Part shown: one piece after another, positions 26,399 to 45,528 of the stretch
Position numbering within the stretch: position 1 is the first letter of the stretch
How the letters are laid out: the number at the start of each line of letters is the position of its first letter
Source: an uncultured Chloroflexia bacterium
GTDB lineage: Bacteria; Chloroflexota; Dehalococcoidia; GIF9; UBA5629
Assembly (NCBI GenBank): GCA_963848815.1
Contig: CAWKFY010000017.1
Location: 13,852-77,851, forward strand
Length of the DNA stretch: 64,000 bases
Direction: 5' to 3'
Notes under the pieces: model-generated
Database searches by the model: none
Told to the model about the DNA's origin: nothing
What the model saw: only the letters and a program-made list of their open reading frames with translations
Translations under genes and position numbers: made by a program

Positions 26399-27761
26399 TC
26401 AGTGCGATATCTTCCAGGTCGTCCCTTTGGGCGTGTCCTCAATAGCTATCCCCATCTTGAGCAACTGGTCGCGCACCTCGTCGGCCTGCTTCCACTCTTT
26501 GGCTTTGCGGTACTGGTTGCGCTCGCTCTATCAGCTCCAGGATTTTCTCCTCTTGAGAGTGTTCAAGCTTTCTGGCCTCCTGCAGGGTAAAGCCGATCAC
26601 GCCGGCCAGCTCTTTAAGCATCTGCTGAGCGGGGCCGATGTCCATCCCCTTCTCGCTGCCGCGATTGATCTCACGCACCAGTTCGAACATGGCAGCCACG
26701 GCCTGCGGCGCGCTGAAATCATCGTCCATGGCCTCCATAAAACGCATCCTGTACGGCCCGGCGTCAAGTACTTCGCCGCCCGGCTTACCCTCCGCCTTGA
26801 TAGCCTGCTTCATTCTCTCGATGCCGGTTTCAGCAGCGTCGAGGGCTTCCTCACTATAGCGCAGCGGCATCCTGTAGTAGGAGCTTATGATAAAGAGCCT
26901 GATGGCGTCGGCGCTGTTGCGCTCCAGCGCCTGCTTGATGGTAACCAGGTTGCCCAGCGATTTGCTCATCTTGTCCGCGCCGAGCTGCAGAAAGCCGTTG
27001 TGCATCCAGATGCGCACGAAGGGCTCGACTCCGGTGAAACATTCCGACTGGGCCATTTCGTTCTCATGGTGCGGGAATACCAGGTCCTGTCCGCCGCCGT
27101 GAATATCCAGCGTTTTGCCCAGATGCTTGATGGACATGGCCGTGCATTCGATATGCCAGCCCGGACGGCCTTCGCCCCAGGGGCTGGGCCAGGCCGGCTC
27201 GCCCGGCTTGGCCGCTTTCCAGAGCGCAAAGTCCAGGGGGTCTTCTTTTTTCTCAGTCTCGGAAGTTTCGGTGACCCGCATGTCGTCCGCAGTCTGGTGC
27301 GTCAACTTTCCATAGCCGGGGAAGCTTTTTACCCGGAAATAAACGCTGCCGTCGTCCACCCGGTAAGCATGTCCCTTATCCACCAGGGTCTGGATGACCT
27401 GGATAATCATGGGTATTTCCTCGGTAGCCCGGGGATAAATCGTCGCCCTCTGGATATTAAGGGCGTCCATATCCGCGAAAAATTCGCCGATATATTTTTC
27501 CACCAGCTCTTTCCAGGGTATATGCCTCTCGTTTGAGCGGTTTATGATCTTATCGTCGATGTCGGTGAAATTCTGCACGTATTTGACCTGGTATCCCCGG
27601 TATTCCAGGTAGCGCCTGATGACGTCGAACGTTATATAGCTCAGCGCGTGGCCGAAATGACAGACATCATATACCGTAACCCCGCAAACATACATCTTAA
27701 CTTCGTTATCTTGGGGAGCAAACTCTTCCTTTTGGCCGGACAGGGTATTGAATATCTTCAT
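26399..27761 (-). CDS. cysS: Cysteine--tRNA ligase; frameshift near 26525
   Basis: [45 protein letters not shown]. The +1 frame continues [21 protein letters not shown]...[13 protein letters not shown]. Confidence 0.95.
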
Positions 27762-33297: not shown

Positions 33298-33325
33298 AGT
33301 TTATAATAAGAGCATATGGTGTCAA
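33298..33325 (-). promoter_or_regulatory. Dedicated promoter for the 5S rRNA gene
   Basis: TTGACA (33320-33325), 16 bp spacer, TAAACT (33298-33303), ending 12 nt before the mature 5S 5' end. Confidence 0.7.
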
Positions 33326-33341
33326 ATAGCGTATGTGTAAT

Positions 33342-34885
33342 GTTACTGTGACTGATTTGTCGGTCTTGAGTTAGAGAGGCCTTGTAAAACATTATATCGC
33401 TATCCTGGTTAGAGATTTCAATATTTCAACCCAAGGACGGGCTGCATGTGGGCCAGATATCGCTGGCATTCCAACATTGAAATAACTCGTGTAATCATAT
33501 TTTATTGTACGATCGAGCACTCTCCTTATTTGTTTTTCCGGCATTTTTATAGATGTAGTTTCAGCGATGCGGAAGCACAGGCGATCCGCCAGAGTCCCTT
33601 CACGTATACTGATTCTCAGCCAGAGCATCCGGCGTATTCCCTGACGTGACCAACTCATGCCCTGATTCTTCATCCTTCGTACGATCAACTTGTCAATATT
33701 TCCCTCGATAGCCCCTGTTCTTCGTAAGGTAATTCCCTGTTGTCCCATGCTTTCCCGATAATCCTGCAATCCGGAGGCATTGGAACTGATATATTTGATC
33801 ACCTGCCTGATGTCTTTGGCCTTATCGTCTGGCGCCCGGTCTACCGCTTCTTTGAGCTGCTTAAGAGCGGCATCATGTTGGCCACAACTGCAATGATATT
33901 GAACCGACCGTAAGATAGCTCGATCATGCTTCAGTGCATGACAAAGAGCATGGTTGAGGTGATATCGGCATAGCTGATATTGGCCTCCGAAATAATCAAC
34001 ACCTTCTTTGATCCATGTTGCGCCGTCTCCACCGATGACGTATTGCGTCCCACCAAGATCGTATTTCTGGTGCAGTTTTAAGGCCATTCCTGTCCAGAAT
34101 CGATCAGTGCTTAATATGTCTGCATAAAGGGTCTTATTGACCGTGCTGTAACGGTCTTTGCCTACTTTCCGCCAGCTCTCATAGGCAATGCCCAGCTTTA
34201 CCTCAGCCCTACGTGCCGTTTCCCTTTGCAAGGGTAGCACAACGCCGTCCGCCTCGATAATCAGACAGCTCGCCTTCCTGCCTTCAGTCTGTTTCAACTC
34301 GCCAGTATCTTCAAACCAAGCCGCACTACGATCTGCATCATCTTGACTGTCGGCAATAGCCAATTGGACTAACCTGTGAATGGTTCTATAAGAAAGGCCG
34401 ATAGAAGTGGTTCTGTTTAGTACCTCAGCGCTTCTGCGGAAAGGCATCTCGGCCGCCAACCCGCATGCCAGCTCTTTCACAGCCAAGGTGGTGTGACGGT
34501 ATTTGCCCATACCCATCAATTCATCCAGCGGATATTGATATTTCCCGTCTCGCCCTCGATATTGTCTCCTGGTAACCATGATCGGTCCAAGCCTGGTCCG
34601 ATACCAGGTGCTTCGCTTATGAGCGACTACTAAATCAGCAGGCCTATGCTGTTGTATCAGCGAGTCGATCTGCTCAAGTACGTTTCCAAATGCCTTACGT
34701 GCGCATTCAACTGCTTTGTCGAATAAATCCTTCTCCATTGAGACTACGATCTGTTTGAGTTCCTCAGCGTTTTTGGTTAGACTGGTTTTCAAGAGAATCT
34801 CCTTTATAAATTTATTGGTGGTAGATTTATTTTGTGAGGTCTCTCTTGCTTTTTGCAACCTGACCGACAAAACTGTCACTGTATC
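33342..34885 (-). mobile_element. ISLre2-family insertion sequence (1544 bp)
   Basis: 24-bp imperfect terminal inverted repeats (33342-33365 GTTACTGTGACTGATTTGTCGGTC and 34862-34885; 20/24 match); 9-bp direct repeat ATGTGTAAT at 33333-33341 and 34886-34894. Confidence 0.9.
33392..34792 (-). CDS. ISLre2-family (UPF0236) DDE transposase
   Basis: IEADG, IGGDGATWI, LCRYHL, GAIEGNI..RRMK..GMSWS..G. Likely TTG start at 34792 behind an AAGGAG RBS. Confidence 0.88.
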   Translation of the reverse strand: MKTSLTKNAEELKQIVVSMEKDLFDKAVECARKAFGNVLEQIDSLIQQHRPADLVVAHKRSTWYRTRLGPIMVTRRQYRGRDGKYQYPLDELMGMGKYRHTTLAVKELACGLAAEMPFRRSAEVLNRTTSIGLSYRTIHRLVQLAIADSQDDADRSAAWFEDTGELKQTEGRKASCLIIEADGVVLPLQRETARRAEVKLGIAYESWRKVGKDRYSTVNKTLYADILSTDRFWTGMALKLHQKYDLGGTQYVIGGDGATWIKEGVDYFGGQYQLCRYHLNHALCHALKHDRAILRSVQYHCSCGQHDAALKQLKEAVDRAPDDKAKDIRQVIKYISSNASGLQDYRESMGQQGITLRRTGAIEGNIDKLIVRRMKNQGMSWSRQGIRRMLWLRISIREGTLADRLCFRIAETTSIKMPEKQIRRVLDRTIKYDYTSYFNVGMPAISGPHAARPWVEILKSLTRIAI

Positions 34886-34915
34886 ATGTGTAATAAAGCA
34901 GTAAATAATCGAGAG

Positions 34916-35959
34916 TTATATTTTCTTATATTTAGTAGGATCAGTCGGAGGAATATAATAAGTTGCCACGACAGGGCTTGGCCCCAATGTCTTTGATCTT
35001 AAAAATGCAGAGTGATTTGTGGGTGCGAGATGTACTTCGAAAGGAGGGTATATTCGCTTAAACCTACCAAGAATTCGATTTCTCAGGATATCCATTTTAG
35101 AAGCTGCCTCAGATGAGATAAAAAATACAGGACAATTTGGATCTTGGCAATTGCAAGGCCTTATCTCTCCCTGCCTTAGACAATCATCATATGTTATCCT
35201 TAAAAGATTGAGTTCCTTTACAATTTCAGATAAAGCTTTCTTAAATCTCTGTTTTTTTATTTGGTGTCTGCTCGGTATCCTTCGTATTTCTGTACCGTCC
35301 CTTAAACGATGAATACCTGTATTCAATGCCTCAATCGTATCGGTAATTGCTTTCTTAAACGCTGGAATTGAACTTTCACTTTGGAAAGGGGTGTAGAAAG
35401 CCGGTCTATCGAATAATTCTGCCATTAGAGCTAAAATCTCGACATCGTTTAATAATTTAAGCTGCTCAATAAATGAACTCAAATCAGATGGAGACTCTGG
35501 AAACTCTTCACCTTGCACAAATCGTTTGAGTAGAGATTCGGCTTCTGCTCGTAGCCGCTCTTCAAACTCTTGCCCAGACCATATACTACAACTACGAATA
35601 CCTTTTTTCGCAACGAAATTTCTTATTTTATCACGTAGTCGCGCTGAAATATTTCCTCCTAAAACAAGAATAAATTCATCTGGAACCCCAAACGGACCGG
35701 ATACAATAAGGTCCACATCTTGCACGACCTTAGAAATTGTTAACCTTTTCCTATTTGCACATTGAATACAGACTTTGTTGTACTTGCTATTACCAGATTC
35801 TCCCCAAATGTCACGTCCCAAATCTGTCCCAAGTTGTCCATACCAATCTAGGGAGCGCCATCTCCGGGTACGCAGCATATAAGCAAAAACAAGTCGTTCA
35901 AATTGTATACCACCAAAATCATCAAAATGCACTTTTTGAACCAGTATTGCGGGACTCAT
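34916..35959 (-). CDS. Orphan restriction endonuclease-like protein (Mrr/PD-(D/E)xK-like N-domain plus unknown C-domain)
   Basis: FERLVFAY...G.DLGRDI...CIQCANR...WSGQEFEERL resembles Mrr-type nuclease folds; AT-rich; no methyltransferase nearby. Confidence 0.6.
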   Translation of the reverse strand: MSPAILVQKVHFDDFGGIQFERLVFAYMLRTRRWRSLDWYGQLGTDLGRDIWGESGNSKYNKVCIQCANRKRLTISKVVQDVDLIVSGPFGVPDEFILVLGGNISARLRDKIRNFVAKKGIRSCSIWSGQEFEERLRAEAESLLKRFVQGEEFPESPSDLSSFIEQLKLLNDVEILALMAELFDRPAFYTPFQSESSIPAFKKAITDTIEALNTGIHRLRDGTEIRRIPSRHQIKKQRFKKALSEIVKELNLLRITYDDCLRQGEIRPCNCQDPNCPVFFISSEAASKMDILRNRILGRFKRIYPPFEVHLAPTNHSAFLRSKTLGPSPVVATYYIPPTDPTKYKKI

Positions 35960-36022
35960 TACAATTTACCCCTCTTTATCAGTATAAATATGTTCATTCA
36001 GCTCTAGGAGAATTGTCAAATA

Positions 36023-36214
36023 TCAAGAAAAGAATCTGGCTTGAGCGGGCTGGCCTTTCTTATAAGGGATGCCCAGGTGTTCATAGGCCAGGCGCGTGGC
36101 CGTGCGTCCCCGGGGGTCCTGTCGAGAAATCCAAGTTGCAGCAAATACGGGTCGTATATGCCTTCGATGGCGTCGGACTCCACTTCCAGCTTGCCCATAG
36201 CTTCGAGTGTAACC
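36023..36214 (-). pseudogene. ruvB: Displaced, diverged ruvB 3'-end fragment with a 108-nt in-frame internal deletion
   Basis: 36053-36100 is identical to 44518-44565 (48 bp) and 36181-36214 is identical to 44755-44788 (34 bp). The segment between has 9 substitutions and 1 indel. ruvB 44647-44754 is absent. Restored C-terminus KKGQPAQARFFS* versus [11 protein letters not shown]. Confidence 0.9.
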
Positions 36215-36218
36215 TCTC

Positions 36219-36888
36219 TCACCGCCACCAGCGTATGTTTTTCCTGGGGATTTCTTTAACGTCTGGCGGTGGTTCCAGGGCCTTTGTCACTTTATGCGCC
36301 ATATAACTGATGGGTTTTGTTAACGGATGCAGAGGTCCGAGCCTTTGTCCGAAACTCTGGGCTGTAAGGTCGGTGTAAAGGCTTAACGTCTGGGCTGCCG
36401 TCAAAAAATCCCAGCAGACGAAAATCTCTTCGGCAATCCCGAAAGGCATGCTTAGAGGTATAAAGCCCCGCGCGTACTCGACAGCCCATACCCCGTTGGT
36501 GAAATTCATGGCGCGCGCCTGGCCCGGACCGACGTAGATGCGGTCACCGGGTTTATAAATCGTCTTCTCGAACTGACCTTCCGCGTAGTACCAGGTCTCT
36601 CCATCAATAACAGTATCCCAGAATCCGGCGAAATGACGTCCGGAATGGCCTTCAGAGCCGATGGGAGTTCCCCAAATCATGATATATTCGGTCAGTGGAA
36701 GCATAGTAGAGCTTCATCTGGATCATCGCGCCTCCGGCGATGCTGTATATCCAGGGCTGCGAGAAATCGAGCACTTTCGGATAGTGGGTTGCAAGAGCAT
36801 TGGCGAAAGCATCGAACATCTGCGGCTTGGGCATACCCAGGCACTCCATAGCGCACTTGTGAACGATATCAGGATCAAATCTGGCCAT
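36219..36888 (-). CDS. ERG2/sigma-1 receptor family protein (C-8 sterol isomerase-like); frameshift near 36697
   Basis: Joining ORF 36652-36897 with ORF 36219-36704 gives W...IAGGAM.QM.LYYASLTEYIMIWGTPIGSEGHSGRH...WAVEYARGFIP.SMPFG, the ERG2/SIGMAR1 signatures including the conserved EY.RG glutamate. Confidence 0.88.
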
Positions 36889-36914
36889 TGGCATCAACCT
36901 CTTTCTCTGGTGAT

Positions 36915-37727
36915 TTATACAACGTCATCGAACGGGCCGAACATCTTTTCCATCGATCCGCTTACGATACGAATAGCGCGGGCGCGGGACACCATTTTCC
37001 CCATGAAAAAGTATCCCAGCCGGTTAGATCTCCCCGCGATGAGACTTGGTCGTTTCCCCAGCGCTTTCAACGCCTCGGTGACCGTCGGCTTTACGTCCAT
37101 CACTTTCACGAACCGCGCCGGCTTCGGCTCGTTGGCATCCCAGCCGGGTGTTTTCGTTGACCCCGCCATGAACCCGAGCACGTCGACCCCATACCGGCCC
37201 AGCTCGTACCAAAGGCTCTCGGCAATAATCAGATTGTAGGCTTTGGTCGCCGCATAGTTGGCGCAATAGGCGGTCCCGTACATCGCCGAAGCAGAAGAAA
37301 GAAAAATGATACCTCCCCGCCTCCGCTCGGCCATCTTTCTGCCGAAGTGATGGGCCAGGATGAGCCCCGCCCGCGTGTTGACGTGCAACTGCTTCACAAG
37401 CTGGTCAACGGAATGATTGAGAAAGGGACGGACTTTTGACAAACCCGCATTATTCACCAGCAGGCCAATCTCCAAAGAGTCGGTAACAGGAGTGATCTCT
37501 TTAAGTATGTCCTCCCGGCTAAGGTCGAGCGCTATTGTCCGGACTTCTACGCCGTAGTCTTTCTTTAGCGCGTCCGCCCTGGCTTTGAGCAAATCAGCGT
37601 TAGTGGCAACTAGAATCGTATTCAGGCCCCGTTCAGCACATTGGCGGGCGAATTCGGCGCCGAGCCCCCGTGAAGCGCCGGTGATCAATGCCCAGGGACC
37701 GTATTTTCTTAAGAAAGAAGATGGCAT
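36915..37727 (-). CDS. SDR family oxidoreductase (17beta-HSD/KAR-like subgroup)
   Basis: YGPWALITGASRGLG, LLVNNAG, SS, YAATKAY catalytic motif. Confidence 0.9.
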   Translation of the reverse strand: MPSSFLRKYGPWALITGASRGLGAEFARQCAERGLNTILVATNADLLKARADALKKDYGVEVRTIALDLSREDILKEITPVTDSLEIGLLVNNAGLSKVRPFLNHSVDQLVKQLHVNTRAGLILAHHFGRKMAERRRGGIIFLSSASAMYGTAYCANYAATKAYNLIIAESLWYELGRYGVDVLGFMAGSTKTPGWDANEPKPARFVKVMDVKPTVTEALKALGKRPSLIAGRSNRLGYFFMGKMVSRARAIRIVSGSMEKMFGPFDDVV

Positions 37728-37992
37728 TTTTACTCTTTAAAAGATTAATACCTGGGGCCTCATAGTATTTAATACTTTTTAGCATGCTTTGTAAACCTCG
37801 TTTCGCTGGGAGGTATAAAAATAGAGAAATGGTAGCGAAAATTATACTTTCATGAGATGCAAGAATTAAGCATATTTAAAACCTTTAGAAAAGTTCTTGC
37901 TTTTATTCGGCACGGTCTAAAACGCTGTATAATGGTCAGAAATCCAACCTTTTCTACTGCAAGCGCCAACAATTCATCGGAGGGTAAGTGGT

Positions 37993-38771
37993 ATGACAGT
38001 TAAAATATGTAGCGCCGCTGAAGCTATATCTGTGATAAAGGATGGCGACCACGTAGCTTCTTATATGTGGTCATATGCGGCACGCCCGGGTATTTATATC
38101 GTGCCCTGGCTGCAAGCACGCCACGAACCTGACCCTGTATATCGAGAATTTCTTGCCCGGTCCGCCGGGCACTGTGGAGATTGGCTTCCCTGATCCCACC
38201 ATGCTTCTTGCCCACGTGAAGAAGATCGTTACACCTTTTCTTGGCGGCCGTTTCATCGGCCGCATCGGGAATAGCGGCAGATTTCATGGGCGATCTTATC
38301 CACAGCGGGAAGCTTGAAACGGAGGTGACTACTCACGGCGTTTTCATGGAGCGTTTGCATGCAGGCGCTATGGGGCTGGGCGGTTTTTATAGCCCGATAG
38401 GTGTAGGGACCATCGTGGCAGCCGGCAAGGAGACAAGAGTTATCGACGGCAAGGAGTATATATTTGAAAAGTCGATCAGCCCTGATGTGGGACTGATCAA
38501 AGCTGCCAAGGCGGACAAACTTGGAAATCTGGTTTACCACGGTTCTGCCCGGGGAGCTAACCCGGTCATCGCAATGGCATCAAAGGTGAATATTGTTGAG
38601 GTTGACGAAATAGTTGAGCCGGGCGAATTGGACCCGGAGCTAATAGTTACCCCGGGAATATACGTGGACTACCTGGTAAAAATACCCGAGGACGATATCG
38701 CAGGCGCCAAGAACCTTAAAGAGCTCGTCAAATTCGGTGTAGCGCTGGTGAATACGAAAGGTGTGAAATGA
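37993..38771 (+). pseudogene. 3-oxoacid CoA-transferase subunit A, three frameshifts
   Basis: Pieces in successive frames: SAAEAISVIKDGD; GTPGYLYRAL; NLTLYIEN; HGVFMERLHAGAMGLGGFYSPIGVGT...KAAKADKLGNL...VTPGIYVD. Shifts near 38070, 38125 and 38270. Confidence 0.75.
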
Positions 38772-39436
38772 AAGAGAGACTGGATGAAATAGTGATGGCA
38801 ATGAGAGCAGCCCGGGAATTGAAGCCCGGAGATTACTGCAACCTCGGCCTCGGCATGCCGCAAATGTGCGCATCCAATGTTCCGGATGGCGTGTACATGT
38901 CCAGGCGGAGAATGGCGTTATCGGTTATGGCCCGCTTGTAACGACCGACAATGTTGATGAAGCTGACGTCGGTCTGATCGATGCCGGAGGAAAATTCTAT
39001 ACTCCTGCTCCCGGCATGTGCTTTTTTGACATGGTTACATCCTTTGCCATGATCCGAAGCGGCCGGCTTATATCAATACTGGGCGGGCTCCAGGTATCCG
39101 AAACTGGCGACCTGGCCATTCACAGCCCAGCGAGCAGACGAGTATCCGCAGATCGGGGGGAGCATGGATTTGGCGTGGGGCGCCAAAGAGGGTCATCGTA
39201 GCAATGACGCATACCAATAAAGATGGGAAACCCAAGCTGGTCAAAAACTTGACCTACCCGCTGACTGCGGCCAAATGCGTTAATTTCATAATTACCGACG
39301 TGGCAGTAATTGAAGTGACAGACCAGGTGGACTTGTCCTTAAGGAGTTTGCCCCCGGATGGACCGTTGATGAGATCAAATCCTTGACAGAGGCCCGTCTC
39401 TCTGTGGCAGCCGATGTTAAGGTGATGGAGCTATAA
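38768..39436 (+). pseudogene. 3-oxoacid CoA-transferase subunit B, four frameshifts
   Basis: MRAARELKPGDYCNLGLGMP; QAENG; LQVSETGDLA; PQIGGSMDLAWGA; VIVAMTH; IITDVAV; LKEFAPGWTVDEI. Shifts near 38895, 39136, 39186 and 39327. Confidence 0.75.
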
Positions 39437-39621
39437 CCACTTTATCGGGCATGTCCCCTCCGTTATGATCAACCCCACGCCACCCCTGGCACGCTGCTCG
39501 TAATGGGATATCATCAGATCGGTGACGTTGCCATAGGGGGCATAACGATACGGTTGCGGATTTTCCTGGAGCCAAGCTTTCCGGGCTCCAACAACCTTGT
39601 ATAATCAGCTTTATTCAGCAT
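39430..39621 (-). pseudogene. N-terminal remnant of an NADH:flavin oxidoreductase (old yellow enzyme family)
   Basis: MLNKADYTRLLEPGKLGSRKIRNRIVMPPM, then a shifted frame GNVTDLMISHYEQRARGGVGLIITEGT; truncated where it meets the CoA-transferase B stop. Confidence 0.8.
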
Positions 39622-39659
39622 CTCAATACTTCCGAAGGCTAATCTCCTGTTCATCTCAT

Positions 39660-40511
39660 CTATGGCAAGCCAGCACCTGGCACTTCGACCCTCAGGCACT
39701 CGACGCGGGATGCTGGCTTGGCCTTGGCTTCCTCCGGAACCGAGCTGTCAGCAGTAAGTATGAATAGCGTGCACCTGTCTGGTCCTCCAAGCATGCATGC
39801 GAACGCTTGCCGGTCCAAATCAATTGCATGAAGTACTTTGCCACCTTCAGTAATCCTTACGACCTGCTGTGTGCTGGGGCTGGCAATCCATACCGTGTTT
39901 TCCGCGTCAAGACATATACCATCCGGCATAGCAGGGGCTGTATTCGCCCAGACATGCCGTCCAGTCAACGAGCCGTCATTTTCTATATTAAATGCGGTCA
40001 GTCTGTTGCCCCAGGTTTCTGCAACGATAAGTGTACTGCCATCAGGTGTAATCACCGAGCCATTGGGGAAACGCATGTCCTCCGCTACGACCTTGGTCGT
40101 TCCATCTGGTTTAACCAGCACCAGGTTGGCTGGGTCAGGATTGAAGCTAACTACCCAGTCCGAGCCGAAGTTGCCGATGTAGGCATCGCCGTTGGAGTTG
40201 ACCACCATGTCATTGCAATGGTAGGTGGCTAAACTGCTCAAGTCTGCAACTTCCACCAGCCCCTGCGGATCCAGCCGCAGTAGACGACGGTCCAGCATTG
40301 ACACGATTAGCAAACGCCCGTCCGGCAGCCACCCCAATCCCGAGGGATGATTGGGAACCTTAGCAACATCCTCCACCTTCCCTTGCATATCAACTTTTAT
40401 CACCTTATTACCGTAAAAATCTGATAACCACAATTTGTTCTCATGCCAGCGCGGCACTTCCCCAAAATATAGACCGTCAATGAGGATCTCTGTTTTCGTC
40501 TGCATACCCAC
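39660..40511 (-). CDS. SMP-30/gluconolactonase/LRE family protein
   Basis: FGEVPRWH, PSGLGW, CNDMVV, FPNGSVITPDG, PDGICLDAE, ACMLGG. Confidence 0.92.
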   Translation of the reverse strand: MGMQTKTEILIDGLYFGEVPRWHENKLWLSDFYGNKVIKVDMQGKVEDVAKVPNHPSGLGWLPDGRLLIVSMLDRRLLRLDPQGLVEVADLSSLATYHCNDMVVNSNGDAYIGNFGSDWVVSFNPDPANLVLVKPDGTTKVVAEDMRFPNGSVITPDGSTLIVAETWGNRLTAFNIENDGSLTGRHVWANTAPAMPDGICLDAENTVWIASPSTQQVVRITEGGKVLHAIDLDRQAFACMLGGPDRCTLFILTADSSVPEEAKAKPASRVECLRVEVPGAGLP

Positions 40512-40899
40512 CTCCTTACGTCACTAGATGTGTTTGTTTTCAACTATAGTACATAATCCTTGAGCTATTAACAATCCACGGTAACATTTTCTCGGATGGC
40601 CCTCTGTGAATCAGTCGGGACGATTTGAACAAACACTATGACCAAATGGTGACTCCTTACCCCTCCAGCATTATTTCAGGTGGAGTTCGACTCTCCCTCA
40701 CTCACTGGAAGACGTCCCAGTACATGATTAAATCAAGTCTCACCTTCGGATTGCAAGTCTGACAACTCAAGTCCTCAAAGCATGCAAAGCATTGACAGCG
40801 CAGCGCTGTTATGAAAAAATACGGCAGCCAACGCTCAACGATTTATGATTTTGATGCCCTTGATTGACGTGTCGCCGATTTGTAGGAGGTTGCCAGAAC

Positions 40900-42927
40900 A
40901 TGAATACCAAGTCGTTTTCTAAGACTCTGATTTCCCTGGTGGTGTTGGCATCATTGCTATTGACGGCACTGGCTGTATTGCCCGGTAGTGCCATGGCAAA
41001 CCTGGCTGCAACCTCGTGGCCCATGTTTCAGCATGACCTGATGCACAGCGGCCGGAGCCAATATATTGGGCCACAGACAAATAACGTTAAGTGGTCTTAT
41101 CAGACCGGCAATATAGTAGGTTCCTCGCCGGCCATCGGCGCGGACGGAACTATATATGTGGGCAGCTATGATAATAATCTTTATGCCATCAATCCTAATG
41201 GCACCAGGAAATGGACATTTCCAACGGGTAATGCTATTTGGGGCGCTCCGGCAATAGGCAGCGACGGCACCATCTATGTGGGCAGCGATGATGACTATAT
41301 TTATGCCATTACGGATAACGTGACTGCGGGTATCCAAAAGTGGCGATTTGGAACGCTCGACCATATTGAGTCCTGCCCGGCTATAGGCGGAGATGGCACC
41401 CTGTATGTCGGCAGTGATGATGGCTATCTTTATGCTATTACGGATAACGGGGCTGCGGGTATTCAGAAGTGGCGATTTGGACCACTGTATAATTCGATTT
41501 CCTCTTCGCCGGCCATCGGCAGCAACGGCACAATATATGTTGGCTCCTGGAACAACTATATTTATGCCATTACGGATAGCGGGACTGCGGGCAATCAGAA
41601 ATGGCGATTCCAAACTGGCGGAGACGTCGTATCTTCGCCGGCCATCGCCAGCGACGGCACCATATACGAGGGGAGCAATGACGCCTATATTTATGCCATT
41701 ACGGATAACGGGACTGCGGGTAATCAGAAATGGCAATTCCAAACGGGCGGCGACGTTCTGTCTTCGCCGGCCATCGGCAGCGACGGCACCATCTATGCAG
41801 GTAGCCTTGACGATTACCTTTATGCCATTAATCCCAACGGTACTCAGAAGTGGTCATACAGGACGGGAGGATTGATTGTGTCTTCGCCGGCCATCGGCAA
41901 CGACGGTACGGTATACGTTCACTCGGAGGACGGCAATCTTTATGCCGTCAGCCCTAATGGCACTCTTATGTGGTCTTATATGACCGGTCAACCCGCCAGA
42001 GGTCCCATGAATTTCGATTCTTCGGCGGCAATCGGCAGCGACGGCACGTTATATATCGGTGCATTTAACGGAAAGGTCTATGCCTTCAAGAGTGCTGCCG
42101 TCGGATCCGCAACAGCCTCTGTCAACACAAGCCTGGGTATTGTTAACTTTAGTACCAGCGCAGGATCAATCTCGGGCCTTGCCAATACGCCTTCGTCAAG
42201 CATGCCGTGTTCAAGCGGAGGATATATCTTCCCCTATGGCATGTTCTCTTATAACATAACCAACCTGGCCCCGGGTGCCACTGCTACCATTACAATTACC
42301 ATTCCTAAGCCATGCCCATGGGCTCAAAGGTATTTAAATGTCAGAACGGCAGCCTGACCGACTTCAGCCAATATGCACAGCAACCAGACCCCAACACCTT
42401 CATACTAACCCTTAAGGACGGCGGACAGGGCGATGCCGACGGCCAGGCTAACGGCACCATCGTCGACCCCTGCGGCCCAGCCTTCCTATTCAGCAATCCG
42501 CCGCAGTCATCCTCGGCGCAGGTTACAATGTTGGCCACAGAATCCAGCAGCCATAGCAAATATCACGGTGCAAAGCGCTTCGCTATCCAATGCAAAAGTC
42601 GCACCCGGCGAACCCGTTACCGTTACAGCAAATATAGCCAATAAAGGTACGGCCAATGGCTCCGCTCAGGTCAAGCTCTATATCAACGGACAGGAAGAGG
42701 CCCATCAGGGCATCACGCTATCCAGCGGCAGCCGGGCACCCATAAAATTCACCGTCAGCCGCAATGAGTCCGGCACCTATTCCGTCTATGTGGGCAGCAT
42801 ACCTGCCGGCACCTTCGAGGTCGACCAGTTCACCGATCCCAACCTTATCCTCTATATCAGCGGCGCATTGATACTCCTGGCACTGGTCGGCGGAGTCATT
42901 TTCATAGCGATGAGAAGGCACCAATAG
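40900..42927 (+). CDS. Surface protein: signal peptide, 8-blade PQQ-like beta-propeller, choice-of-anchor U-like domain, CARDB-like domain and C-terminal TM anchor; frameshifts near 42310 and 42530
   Basis: AGGAGG RBS, WPMFQHD..HSG, eight SSPAIGxDG-type blades; LTLKDGGQGDADGQANGTIVDP in the next frame; then TVTANIANKG... and a hydrophobic tail ending RRHQ*. Confidence 0.82.
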
Positions 42928-42950
42928 CAGTAAAGTTAGTTTAACCAACG

Positions 42951-42981
42951 GCCGCAGCTATAAATGCTGCGGCTTTGTTTT
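42951..42981 (+). terminator. Intrinsic terminator
   Basis: GCCGCAGC-tataaat-GCTGCGGC followed by TTTGTTTT. Confidence 0.8.
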
Positions 42982-43110
42982 GGACACCCATTGGAATAAT
43001 TGATGGGTTTTGTTTAGATATGATATCCTAACAATTAGTTAACATTGTCAATCTGCACAGCAGTATTGCGAGGAAGCAAGGGATATTAAACCTGTATATA
43101 AGGGAGGAAA

Positions 43111-44307
43111 ATGAAAAAACTGTTGTTGGTAATGATCTCAATCTTGATCTTAACGTGCGGATGCATATATATTCCATCAAACCCTACTACAACTACTACT
43201 ACCGCCACACCCGAACAAACGCCGGTGGTAAGTTCGTTCAGCGCCAGCCCGCCGTCCATTGCGTCCGGCGGCAGCTCCACGCTTAGCTGGAGTGTCACGG
43301 GAGCAACAAGCGTCAGCCTGGACAATGGGATAGGAAACGTGGCTGTCAACGGCACGAGGGCGGTAGCGCCTATAGCAAGTACGATATATACTTTAACGGC
43401 TTCCAATTCATCTGGCAGCACTAATGCCACAACGCAGGTACTGGTATCCGGCACAAGCACACCTACGACACCCGCTACTCCATCTGCAACAGAGGCACCC
43501 ACGATCAATTCATTCAGCGCATCTCCCAGCAGCATCTCAGCAGGCGGCTCATCAACTTTGAGCTGGAGCGTAGCCAATGCAACTTCAGTAAACATCCAGC
43601 CAGGGATTGGCAATGTAGCTGCCAACGGGTCCATGGCGATATCGCCGGGAAGCTCAACCGTATATGCGCTTACAGCTACCAACTCAGGCGGCAGTAGTCA
43701 AGCAAGCACCCAAGTGATTGTAGCCTCCAGCACCCCCATAACTCCCGTCACACCCCTATCTCCAGGGATACACCTACTACCAGGGATAGCAGGCCTACTC
43801 ACAACAACTGTATATGATTTTGTAGCCAAAGCGCCAAATGCTTCCTGGGCGAGCGGCGGTGGAAGCCTGACCTTTCCGGGCGGTGACACAGACAATAGTG
43901 GATTTGCACTCTGGCGCAACAACGTCACCTTGGAGGATGACACCGTCTATACGCAGGTACTGGAAACACATCCGCAGTGGATAACCGGCGGCTGGATCGA
44001 GGGGGCTTACACAGAACTTGCCAGCTCGTACACCGTACAATCCAGCGATCATTTCTATTCAAAAGTCGGATTCATTAAAGGCGCCGCTGCCGGGAATGTA
44101 AGATTCAGGGTAATGATACGCACTGATACCGGCAACACCTGGATTGCAGATGTCCCCAAGTTATATAACGGTTCGCTGTCAACAATTGACATTCCTCTTT
44201 CAGCTTATGCGGGGCACAAGGCAGACTTCATTTTGAGAGTTGAAGCCAATAACACCAGCGCCACGCAGGATTGGGCCACCTGGATAGGCACCTCGATTAC
44301 ACGATAG
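43111..44307 (+). CDS. Putative lipoprotein with two Ig/PKD-like repeats and a C-terminal beta-sandwich domain
   Basis: Signal ending LTCGC; two repeats of P.I/V.SFSASP.SI..GGSSTLSWSV..ATSV....GIGNVA.NG...V.P..ST.Y.LTA.NS.G; Thr/Pro linkers; GGAGG RBS. Confidence 0.8.
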   Translation: MKKLLLVMISILILTCGCIYIPSNPTTTTTTATPEQTPVVSSFSASPPSIASGGSSTLSWSVTGATSVSLDNGIGNVAVNGTRAVAPIASTIYTLTASNSSGSTNATTQVLVSGTSTPTTPATPSATEAPTINSFSASPSSISAGGSSTLSWSVANATSVNIQPGIGNVAANGSMAISPGSSTVYALTATNSGGSSQASTQVIVASSTPITPVTPLSPGIHLLPGIAGLLTTTVYDFVAKAPNASWASGGGSLTFPGGDTDNSGFALWRNNVTLEDDTVYTQVLETHPQWITGGWIEGAYTELASSYTVQSSDHFYSKVGFIKGAAAGNVRFRVMIRTDTGNTWIADVPKLYNGSLSTIDIPLSAYAGHKADFILRVEANNTSATQDWATWIGTSITR

Positions 44308-44490
44308 CATCAGAACAAATATTACCCGGGATATCCAAAAAGATGACACTCCGCCTGCGCTAACTGAAATACTACGCAGCGCCTCATTTTCCTTTAGCTG
44401 TTTACTGAGGCTGCCGGCTACTTGTCTACGTGGGCCGTGCTTTAATAATGATACGTTGTCAAGCAATACAACTTATTGTGCGAGATAAAC

Positions 44491-45528
44491 TTAGAAGAGG
44501 CTGCCCTGCGGGGTTGTGCCTTTCTTATAAGGGATGCCCAGGTGTTCATAGGCCAGGCGCGTGGCGGTGCGTCCCCTGGGGGTCCTGTCGAGAAACCCCA
44601 GTTGCAGCAGATACGGCTCGTAGACGCCTTCGATGGTATCGGACTCTTCGCTGATGGACGCCGCTATGGTATCCAGTCCGACCGGGCCGCCTTCGAACTT
44701 TTCAATGATCGTCCTGAGGACCTTGCGGTCTATCTCATCCAGCCCCAGCTTGTCCACTTCCAGCTTGCCCATAGCTTCGAGTGTAACCCTGCTATCCACC
44801 ACCCCGTTGGCCTTGACCTGGGCATAGTCACGGATGCGTTTCAAGAGGCGGTTGGCCACGCGGGGCGTTCCCCTGGCCCGGCAGGCGATCAGCTCGATGC
44901 TTTCCTGATCGATCTTTAATTTAAGTATGGCGGCGGAACGCTTGATGATGGCGCCGATGGATTCAACATCATAAAAATCGAGCCGGTGGACAGAGCCGAA
45001 GCGGTCCCTCAGGGGAGAGCTCATGGCGGCATAACGCGTGGTGGCGCCGATCAGAGTGAAGCGGGGTAAATTTAATCGCAGGCTCCTGGCGCCGGGGCCT
45101 TTGCCCAGGATGATATCCAGGGCATAGTCTTCCATGGCCGGGTAAAGTATCTCTTCTACGATCCTGCTCAGGCGGTGGACCTCGTCGATAAAGAGCACGT
45201 CGCCTTTTTGCAGGTTGGTCAGTATGGCTGCCAGGTCGCCCGGCCGCTCGATGGCAGGGCCGGAGCTGACCTTGATATTCACTCCCATCTCGCCGGCGAT
45301 GATGAAGGCCAGCGTCGTTTTACCCAGGCCGGGAGGCCCGTAAAGCAGGATATGGTCTATGGCCTCGCCGCGCTTCTGGGCAGCCTTAATGCCGATCTCA
45401 AGGTTATCCTTGACCTTCTGCTGGCCGATAAAATCGGCCAGCCGCCTGGGCCTCAGATTGGCATCCAGGGAACTATCCTCCGGGCTAAGCTTGCCCGAGA
45501 CTATTCTGGATGATTCCTCTTCCTGCAT
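44491..45528 (-). CDS. ruvB: Holliday junction branch migration helicase RuvB
   Basis: [56 protein letters not shown]. Confidence 0.98.

Follow-up and report, generated by a model that had tools for sequence, protein, structure and literature searches.

An SDR-coupled, anchor-less ERG2/sigma-1-like gene on a genomic island of an uncultured Dehalococcoidia bacterium

Does a bacterial gene that resembles ERG2 and the sigma-1 receptor, broken in frame and lying next to a short-chain dehydrogenase/reductase (SDR) gene, belong to a genuine two-gene unit, and if so, how did it reach its genome and on what might it act? The question is raised by a stretch of 64,000 nucleotides (hereafter the window; contig CAWKFY010000017.1 of assembly GCA_963848815.1, positions 13,852‒77,851 of the forward strand) from an uncultured bacterium of the class Dehalococcoidia. 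The initial annotation, made from the sequence of the window, had proposed an ERG2/sigma-1 homolog forming a two-gene module with a hydroxysteroid dehydrogenase (HSD)-like SDR in a probable anaerobe. The SDR gene and the anchor-less ERG2-like gene form a genuine two-gene cassette of Dehalococcoidia, Actinomycetota, Myxococcota, and Spirochaetota, and the pair reached this genome by horizontal transfer on an island. The cassette is widespread but unstudied in bacteria.

The ERG2-like protein and its SDR partner

The ERG2-like gene is read in two frames (Table 1), both of which match the Pfam profile PF04622 (ERG2_Sigma1R; gathering cut-off, 21 bits). The first frame (open reading frame (ORF) 36652‒36897, ATG at 36888) covers profile positions 23‒91 with 26.4 bits, and the second frame (ORF 36219‒36704) covers positions 92‒199 with 119.5 bits (E = 1.7e-34). 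The positions matched by the two ORFs are contiguous, both scores exceed the cut-off, and the matches are far above chance, in agreement with the proposed homology. Removal of the extra base restores 222 residues, equal to the closest intact relative, P0001, which is 89% identical and the best homolog found. Among the motifs named in the initial annotation, AGGAM, GTPIGSEGHSGRH, and WAVEYARG are found in the window translations, whereas ASLTEY hinges on the base that is dropped; 12 Dehalococcoidia orthologs have S-M-T/S-E-Y or S-T-S-E-Y at this site. The lack of an N-terminal transmembrane helix, also noted at that stage, is borne out by the alignment start and by low hydropathy. Residue 13 pairs with residue 45 of the sigma-1 receptor chain, and the start of the bacterial protein corresponds to about sigma-1 residue 33‒40. 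No N-terminal transmembrane anchor was found in a Kyte-Doolittle scan, where the highest 19-residue mean is 1.23, and 0.43 for segments starting in residues 1‒25.

A conserved acidic pair (the equivalents of D126 and E172 in sigma-1) and a Glu-Tyr motif (E102 and Y103) are the most conserved positions of the family, and all four are present in the window translation. All 118 cluster representatives have the E102 equivalent, 114 have that of Y103, 102 that of E172 (with Asp in seven more), and 79 that of D126. In P0001, D126 and E172 correspond to D91 and E137. Other pocket residues differ from those of sigma-1 (W89→A, Y120→H, H154→V, and W164→F), and a C-terminal tail beyond the Pfam domain, PEVxxIPxxNIRWF, is conserved in the tight clade around the window protein. 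A cupin-like β-barrel with a C-terminal helix cap is the predicted fold of the bacterial protein, as seen in the AlphaFold model of the 89%-identical ortholog P0001 rather than of the window sequence (predicted local distance difference test score (pLDDT) 88.3, predicted template modeling score (pTM) 0.85). In a Foldseek comparison of this model with the PDB, as the initial annotation had suggested for human sigma-1, each of the 42 best matches is a sigma-1 receptor of human or Xenopus origin, with template modeling (TM) scores of 0.73‒0.78 and root-mean-square deviations of 1.4‒1.9 Å. They include the progesterone and dehydroepiandrosterone-sulfate complexes 8W4B and 8WUE.

A search of 5.8 billion proteins yielded 558 homologs, the best 120 of which are 69‒89% identical and nearly all 211‒252 aa long, and an exhaustive HMMER scan gave 640 clusters at 50% identity. 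Among the long representatives of these clusters, 54 of 118 carry no N-terminal extension, i.e., are anchor-less. Some homologs, from metagenome-assembled genomes (MAGs) labeled Dehalococcoidales, Micrococcales, and Propionibacteriaceae, already bear the name "ERG2 family protein", "C-8 sterol isomerase", or "ERG2 and Sigma1 receptor like protein". The initial annotation held that the frameshift hides the gene from annotation; this is not so, since there are hundreds of intact orthologs of 222‒227 aa with 70‒89% identity, some of them named, and the broken copy occurs only here. In the literature searched, nothing was found on the SDR-coupled clade itself, and the only bacterial ERG2 homologs described are those of Plesiocystis and mycobacteria in a 2009 note, where they are interpreted as eukaryote-derived transfers (PMC2817430). 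A homolog for C-8 isomerization has also been described inside bacterial sterol clusters (PMC10202945). A second ERG2_Sigma1R subfamily with an ORF of about 190 aa is seen in another Dehalococcoidia family, sometimes with two copies per genome; it scores about 200 bits against the Pfam profile, to profile position 210 (e.g., G145:C28:25934-26485 and G251:C12:71201-71752).

The partner upstream is a classical NAD(P)-dependent SDR. Its translation matches PF00106 (adh_short) with 113.2 bits and carries the sequences TGASRGLG, NNAG, SSAS, and YAATK, corresponding to the Rossmann TGxxxGxG motif, NNAG, the catalytic Ser, and YxxxK. The closest solved structure is 5FYD/5GT9 (E = 1.5e-26). The description of this SDR as HSD-like holds only as a weak resemblance: the NCBIfam 7betaHSDH model (NF050024) is second-best with 111.5 bits, but the equivalog cut-off of 300 is not reached, and the score of the NCBIfam mycolate-reductase model also lies under its own cut-off. 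The two genes are co-oriented as initially described, with a gap of 26 nt between the SDR stop codon TAA (36917‒36915) and the ATG of the ERG2-like gene. In a promoter and terminator scan of 35900‒38100, sites were no more numerous than in shuffled sequence.

Species-representative genomes hold 119 close relatives of the ERG2-like protein, and we surveyed the loci of the best 80 of these 119, taking taxon groups from the record titles. The survey comprises 12 loci from Dehalococcoidia, 26 from Actinomycetota, 30 from Myxococcota/"delta", and 12 from Spirochaetota, and identity to P0001 ranges from 58 to 89% among the loci of these four phyla. Since naive ORF calling gave many shadow ORFs at high-GC loci, the neighborhood counts were restricted to Pfam-confirmed families. 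Two cultured Rugosimonospora species, R. africana NBRC 104875 and R. acidiphila JCM 18304, are among the carriers. Other record names (fen_, SPRUCE, MFD, and termite-gut MAGs) presumably denote peat, soil, and termite-gut sources.

This survey of synteny, which the initial annotation had called for, corroborates the two-gene module. Of the 80 loci, which come from four phyla, 46 have a homolog of the window SDR no more than 300 bp from the ERG2-like gene. In Dehalococcoidia, the SDR adjoins the ERG2-like gene in 12 of 12 loci, always upstream and co-oriented, with a gap of 22‒45 nt, and these SDR orthologs are 73‒88% identical to the window SDR; in more distant members, the SDR lies downstream and convergent. 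The identities of the SDR and the ERG2-like gene to the window copies co-vary (Spearman rho 0.76, n = 46), indicating that the two genes travel together. When extended SDRs (epimerase/3β-HSD type, PF01370/PF01073) are counted in, 56 of the 80 loci, and 54 of the 74 with full flanks, have an oxidoreductase gene no farther than 300 bp away. A further neighbor, a gene like SRD5A (PF02544, the 3-oxo-5α-steroid 4-dehydrogenase family; 170 bits), is found within 2 kb in 19 of the 80 loci, 14 from Myxococcota and 5 from Actinomycetota, with a 3β-HSD/epimerase-like gene alongside. No other conserved neighbor emerged from the 80-locus survey.

Two candidate links were rejected. Glycyl-radical enzyme genes lie 1‒2 kb from the ERG2-like gene in two unrelated loci (L003, 9689‒13087, with an activase; L007, 8770‒11235), but this proximity is not conserved across the survey. 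The other genes that surround the pair in the window, namely those of a coenzyme A (CoA)-transferase, an SMP-30-like protein, a β-propeller, a CARDB protein, two unknowns, and a transposase, accompany no other ERG2 locus. As a separate observation, one Dehalococcoidia MAG (G061, contig C1; locus L011) carries an SRD5A-like gene (C1:226399-226848) about 10.5 kb from its SDR-ERG2 pair (~C1:214390-215901).

Acquisition of the pair and the broken reading frame

The host is a Dehalococcoidia bacterium, and its RuvB shares 95‒97% identity with proteins labeled Dehalococcoidia. The pair lies in about 11.2 kb of inserted DNA between clpC and ruvB. In three congeners (G001, G004, and G005), the sequence after clpC (up to 33311 in the window) leads to ruvB, rpoC, and rpoB (from 44491 in the window) with at most about 2 kb between. 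A sample of 60 relatives from the genus, family, and order contained no member of PF04622; across the class, 18 of 401 genomes, in 7 of 222 genera, have one. Since the family is missing in these relatives and the syntenic site is empty in the three congeners, the pair was acquired horizontally. The best orthologs at the DNA level are 83‒87% identical at the protein level, and the donor was most probably another Dehalococcoidia lineage.

As for the broken frame, alignment of the DNA with the 12 Dehalococcoidia orthologs confirms that the gene has one surplus base, as initially noted, and reveals no further indel or stop in it. A programmed frameshift is ruled out because the extra base is absent from every ortholog (0 of 12). 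In our view, the frameshift most likely stems from error in a noisy assembly rather than from biology, and the organism probably makes the intact 222-aa protein. The assembly consists of 46 contigs with 74.7% marker completeness. Judging from Pfam domain order, rpoC is split into 46573‒49827 and 45663‒46472, and rpoB into 50387‒52723 and 49837‒50508; in alignment with the three congeners, the window alone has 1 inserted nt at ~46581 (rpoC), 1 at ~50459, and 2 at ~52962 (both rpoB). Since essential genes cannot truly be broken and carry the same sort of private insertion, the assembly is regarded as noisy. In the 21.6 kb common to the window and the three congeners, 22 frame-breaking indels, most of them insertions of 1 nt, are private to the window, against 2, 7, and 7 in the congeners.

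The alternative is that the frameshift is real and the ERG2-like gene a freshly inactivated, functionless pseudogene on a decaying, recently acquired island. Such decay would fit the state of the class I CoA-transferase subunit A and B genes of the island (37993‒39386), which are split into five ORFs, implying three or more breaks of frame within 1.4 kb, denser than in rpoBC, and also the presence of an insertion sequence (IS) element and a broken ruvB copy; this fragmentation, which weighs against the assembly-error explanation, could be either assembly error or true decay of the island. Nevertheless, we regard a pseudogene as unlikely, given that insertions of the same kind occur in rpoB and rpoC, that private frame-breaking indels are 3‒10 times commoner in the window than in the congeners, and that the gene is free of decay except for the single base, with an intact SDR partner. 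The window copy has two private changes at residues invariant in the 12 orthologs, within the range of 0‒6 seen in intact orthologs. Further window-private insertions are located at 26523, 27780, 27994, 28403, and 28935.

Table 1. Coordinates of the SDR-ERG2 pair and associated features (window positions unless a contig is given)
Feature	Position	Strand	Remarks
ERG2/sigma-1-like gene, whole	36219..36888	-	PF04622; two frames, one extra base between
ERG2/sigma-1-like gene, N-terminal part, first frame	36697..36888	-	PF04622 match; collinear with orthologs
ERG2/sigma-1-like gene, C-terminal part, second frame, including stop codon	36219..36693	-	PF04622 match; equivalents of Y103, D126, and E172
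Site of single extra base	36694..36696	-	Only window-private inserted column against 12 orthologs; no finer placement possible
Intergenic spacer, 26 nt	36889..36914	-	Read from sequence; ribosome-binding site AAGAGG 36903-36898, 9 nt ahead of ATG 36888
SDR gene, upstream partner	36915..37727	-	Classical short-chain dehydrogenase/reductase, 270 aa
Inserted DNA (island), ~11.2 kb	33312..44490	.	Between clpC and ruvB; carries SDR-ERG2 pair
Partial second copy of ruvB 3' end	36030..36229	-	Direct repeat of 44495-44803, 86-88% identical; 108-nt internal deletion
IS element	33340-34887		UPF0236-family transposase gene 33392-34879; 26-nt inverted repeats, 85% complementary
3β-HSD/epimerase-like and SRD5A-type genes, adjacent	G000 contig C10:82901-84647 (L102 7901-9647)		Very end of contig

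Proposed function of the cassette

ERG2 has been proposed to move a double bond by protonation and deprotonation through buried acids, whereas sigma-1 receptors bind steroids and amines without isomerase activity. From the conserved residues and the gene neighborhood, we infer with moderate confidence that the cassette may encode a membrane-peripheral, anchor-less double-bond isomerase that acts with oxidoreductases on scavenged steroid-like lipids. The cupin-like barrel would use the C-terminal helices to bind a polycyclic, hydrophobic lipid at the surface of the membrane, and the acidic pair and the Glu-Tyr motif would shift a C=C bond by protonation and deprotonation. The SDR would then interconvert a neighboring hydroxyl and ketone. 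Together with an SRD5A-type 5α-reductase and a 3β-HSD-like dehydrogenase, the cassette could serve an O2-free remodeling of rings A and B of scavenged sterols or steroids.

The linkage to SRD5A-type and 3β-HSD-like genes is the stronger functional clue, and both this clue and the island had been missed by the initial annotation. The genome of the window carries the corresponding pair on another contig, C10 (Table 1). Its 3β-HSD/epimerase-like protein (327 aa) is 39% identical to the ERG2-adjacent one of a surveyed locus (L056), and its SRD5A-like protein (253 aa) shares 51% identity with the ERG2-linked counterpart in Rugosimonospora. The latter matches PbSRD5A (PDB 7C83) over its full length with 267.6 bits, compared with 157 for human SRD5A2 and 57 for an enoyl-CoA reductase, and PbSRD5A converts progesterone to 5α-dihydroprogesterone in vitro (PMC7815742). 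With the pair on C10 and the SDR-ERG2 pair in the window, the four-gene set that is clustered in Myxococcota and Actinomycetota is thus divided between two loci in this genome. The SRD5A-like gene belongs to the core of the genus (6 of 6 genomes) and occurs in 20 of 41 relatives overall, while a strong SRD5A-like gene, in one case frameshifted, is present in 25 of 30 carriers of the ERG2-like gene from the four phyla. NCBIfam has no model for either the ERG2-like or the SRD5A-like proteins.

A scavenged substrate is suggested because the organism appears unable to make triterpenoid rings itself. Profile searches of the whole genome gave no match to squalene-hopene/oxidosqualene cyclase (PF13243) or squalene epoxidase (PF08491), extending to the genome what the initial annotation had stated for the window, and no complete sterol pathway was found. 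A full-length cyclase is encoded in only 8 of the 30 carrier genomes and in none of the five from Dehalococcoidia. The description of the organism as a probable anaerobe agrees with the lack of a heme-copper oxidase in the six genomes of the genus, but cytochrome bd oxidase is present in all six and calls for a qualification: the organism is an anaerobe or microaerotolerant, not necessarily a strict anaerobe.

Several observations weigh against the proposed function. No oxidoreductase gene adjoins the ERG2-like gene in 20 of the 74 loci with full flanks, and two termite-gut Actinomycetota carriers have no SRD5A-like gene. The conservation of the acidic residues is no proof of catalysis, since the sigma-1 receptor keeps the same residues and is not an isomerase. 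The missing cyclase genes are likewise no proof, because marker counts put the completeness of the genome at only about 75%. Finally, the SRD5A/3β-HSD-like pair lies on a separate contig here and is common in relatives without an ERG2-like gene (20 of 41), and its co-occurrence with the ERG2-like gene in this genome may be coincidental.

A more specific version of the scavenging proposal, which we regard as rather doubtful, is that the SDR, ERG2-like, 3β-HSD-like, and SRD5A-type proteins are the long-sought set that hydrogenates Δ5-sterols (cholesterol and plant sterols) to 5α-stanols in anaerobic bacteria of sediment and peat. In such a route, the 3β-hydroxyl would be oxidized, the Δ5 bond shifted to Δ4, the Δ4 bond reduced to the 5α product, and the 3-ketone reduced again, with the ERG2/sigma-1 fold acting as a ketosteroid isomerase in the shift from Δ5 to Δ4.

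Instead of being an enzyme, the ERG2-like protein could, like sigma-1, bind or escort a ligand, retaining a hydrophobic substrate or product for the SDR or sensing it. All solved relatives are sigma-1 receptors, and the replaced pocket residues are unlike those of sigma-1, both of which could be accommodated by a binding role. Such a role nonetheless seems improbable, as a gene kept in tight operons with redox genes in four phyla typically encodes a pathway enzyme, and the 58‒89% identity to P0001 retained across these phyla suggests a demanding active site. The AGGAM motif and the wider pocket are presumably nearer to fungal ERG2 than to the receptor. Retaining an isomerase and changing its substrate, one may instead consider the cell's own non-steroid isoprenoids, such as polyprenol-type carrier lipids. 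By analogy, the eukaryotic SDR DHRSX and SRD5A3 jointly saturate polyprenol to dolichol, acting on polyprenal (PMC11250103), and an endogenous non-cyclic isoprenoid would be an economical substrate, as most carrier genomes lack a cyclase; the SRD5A/3β-HSD-like pair is, moreover, core in the host genus and common in the family. However, the SRD5A-like protein of the host is far nearer to PbSRD5A and human SRD5A2 than to the enoyl-CoA-reductase branch, the ligands known in the ERG2/sigma-1 pocket are polycyclic, the polyprenal route needs no isomerase, and a patchy, island-borne distribution is at odds with a housekeeping lipid. We therefore consider an isoprenoid substrate quite improbable. The canonical role, that of a C-8 sterol isomerase acting where bacteria synthesize sterols de novo, accords with the name borne by some orthologs and with the ERG2 homologs known in sterol-producing bacteria (PMC2817430, PMC10202945). 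It is largely refuted and has become highly improbable: PF13243 and PF08491 are without a match in this genome, where co-occurrence with oxidosqualene cyclase and squalene epoxidase was thus not found, most carriers likewise lack a full-length cyclase, and the genus lacks a heme-copper oxidase.

Comparison with known systems places the bacterial protein in the same Pfam family as the sigma-1 receptor (SIGMAR1; PDB 5HK1, 6DJZ, 7W2B, and 8W4B), to which it is about 30% identical over 135‒165 residues (E = 5e-31). The two share the cupin-like barrel and C-terminal helices (TM score 0.78 for the P0001 model) and the equivalents of Y103, D126, and E172, while the bacterial protein differs by its missing transmembrane anchor, its replacements of W89, Y120, H154, and W164, its extra C-terminal tail, and its operon with the SDR. 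Fungal ERG2 is also of this Pfam family, with an AGGAM-type motif, the acidic residues, and, presumably, acid/base chemistry that moves a double bond of a tetracyclic lipid, a likeness by description rather than by direct comparison of sequence or structure; unlike it, the bacterial protein is anchor-less and is encoded in a genome without a sterol-synthesis pathway. The homologs of Plesiocystis and mycobacteria likewise belong to the family and are bacterial, with a proposed origin by transfer from eukaryotes, and the Plesiocystis copy sits with sterol-synthesis genes (PMC2817430), whereas the present clade is SDR-coupled and found mostly in cyclase-free genomes. The Bacteroidetes isoallolithocholic acid cluster (5α-reductase, 5β-reductase, and 3β-HSDH), in which an SRD5A1-type reductase lies beside an HSD for anaerobic ring-A remodeling, acts on gut bile acids and, in contrast to the present cassette, has no ERG2-like gene (bioRxiv 10.1101/2021.01.08.425963). 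PbSRD5A, finally, is the full-length match of the host SRD5A-like protein, which is a likely pathway partner of the cassette.

The window copy is probably an ordinary, intact, horizontally acquired member of an uncharacterized bacterial branch of a known family. What is new is that this branch is anchor-less, SDR-coupled, linked to SRD5A/3β-HSD-like genes, and found mostly in cyclase-free genomes. The sigma-1 receptor is a drug target, and to our knowledge, fungal ERG2 is its sole characterized enzymatic relative. A large, conserved, anchor-less bacterial clade would provide soluble, tractable models of the sigma-1 fold, and the cassette points to a possible, unrecognized anaerobic transformation of steroids or terpenoids in peat, soil, sediment, and the termite gut. 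If the stanol route were correct, the cassette would tie the stanol/stenol redox proxy, a classic of geochemistry, to a genetic marker, and the bacterial ERG2-like proteins would be the first enzymatically understood sigma-1 relatives beyond sterol synthesis. The branch merits experimental work. For the window itself, a more modest lesson follows, namely that a real gene was gained by transfer and that its frameshift is not to be read as biology.

Other contents of the island and the window

Besides the SDR-ERG2 pair and the CoA-transferase fragments, the island holds two unknown genes (347 and 398 aa) and genes for an SMP-30-like protein, a β-propeller, and a CARDB protein. Its IS element looks intact. 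The partial ruvB copy, which abuts the end of the ERG2-like gene and matches RuvB residues 248‒317 at the protein level, may be a remnant left by the integration of an element at the 3' end of ruvB. The β-propeller gene, of the PQQ-like/ACSF4 type (40864‒42357), contains eight internal DNA repeats of about 129 nt at 41122‒42089. Two more stretches of the window are not found at the syntenic positions of the three congeners, 12849‒17890 (5.0 kb) and 20577‒26407 (5.8 kb), the latter carrying AMP-binding, acyl-CoA dehydrogenase, and AsnC-type regulator genes.

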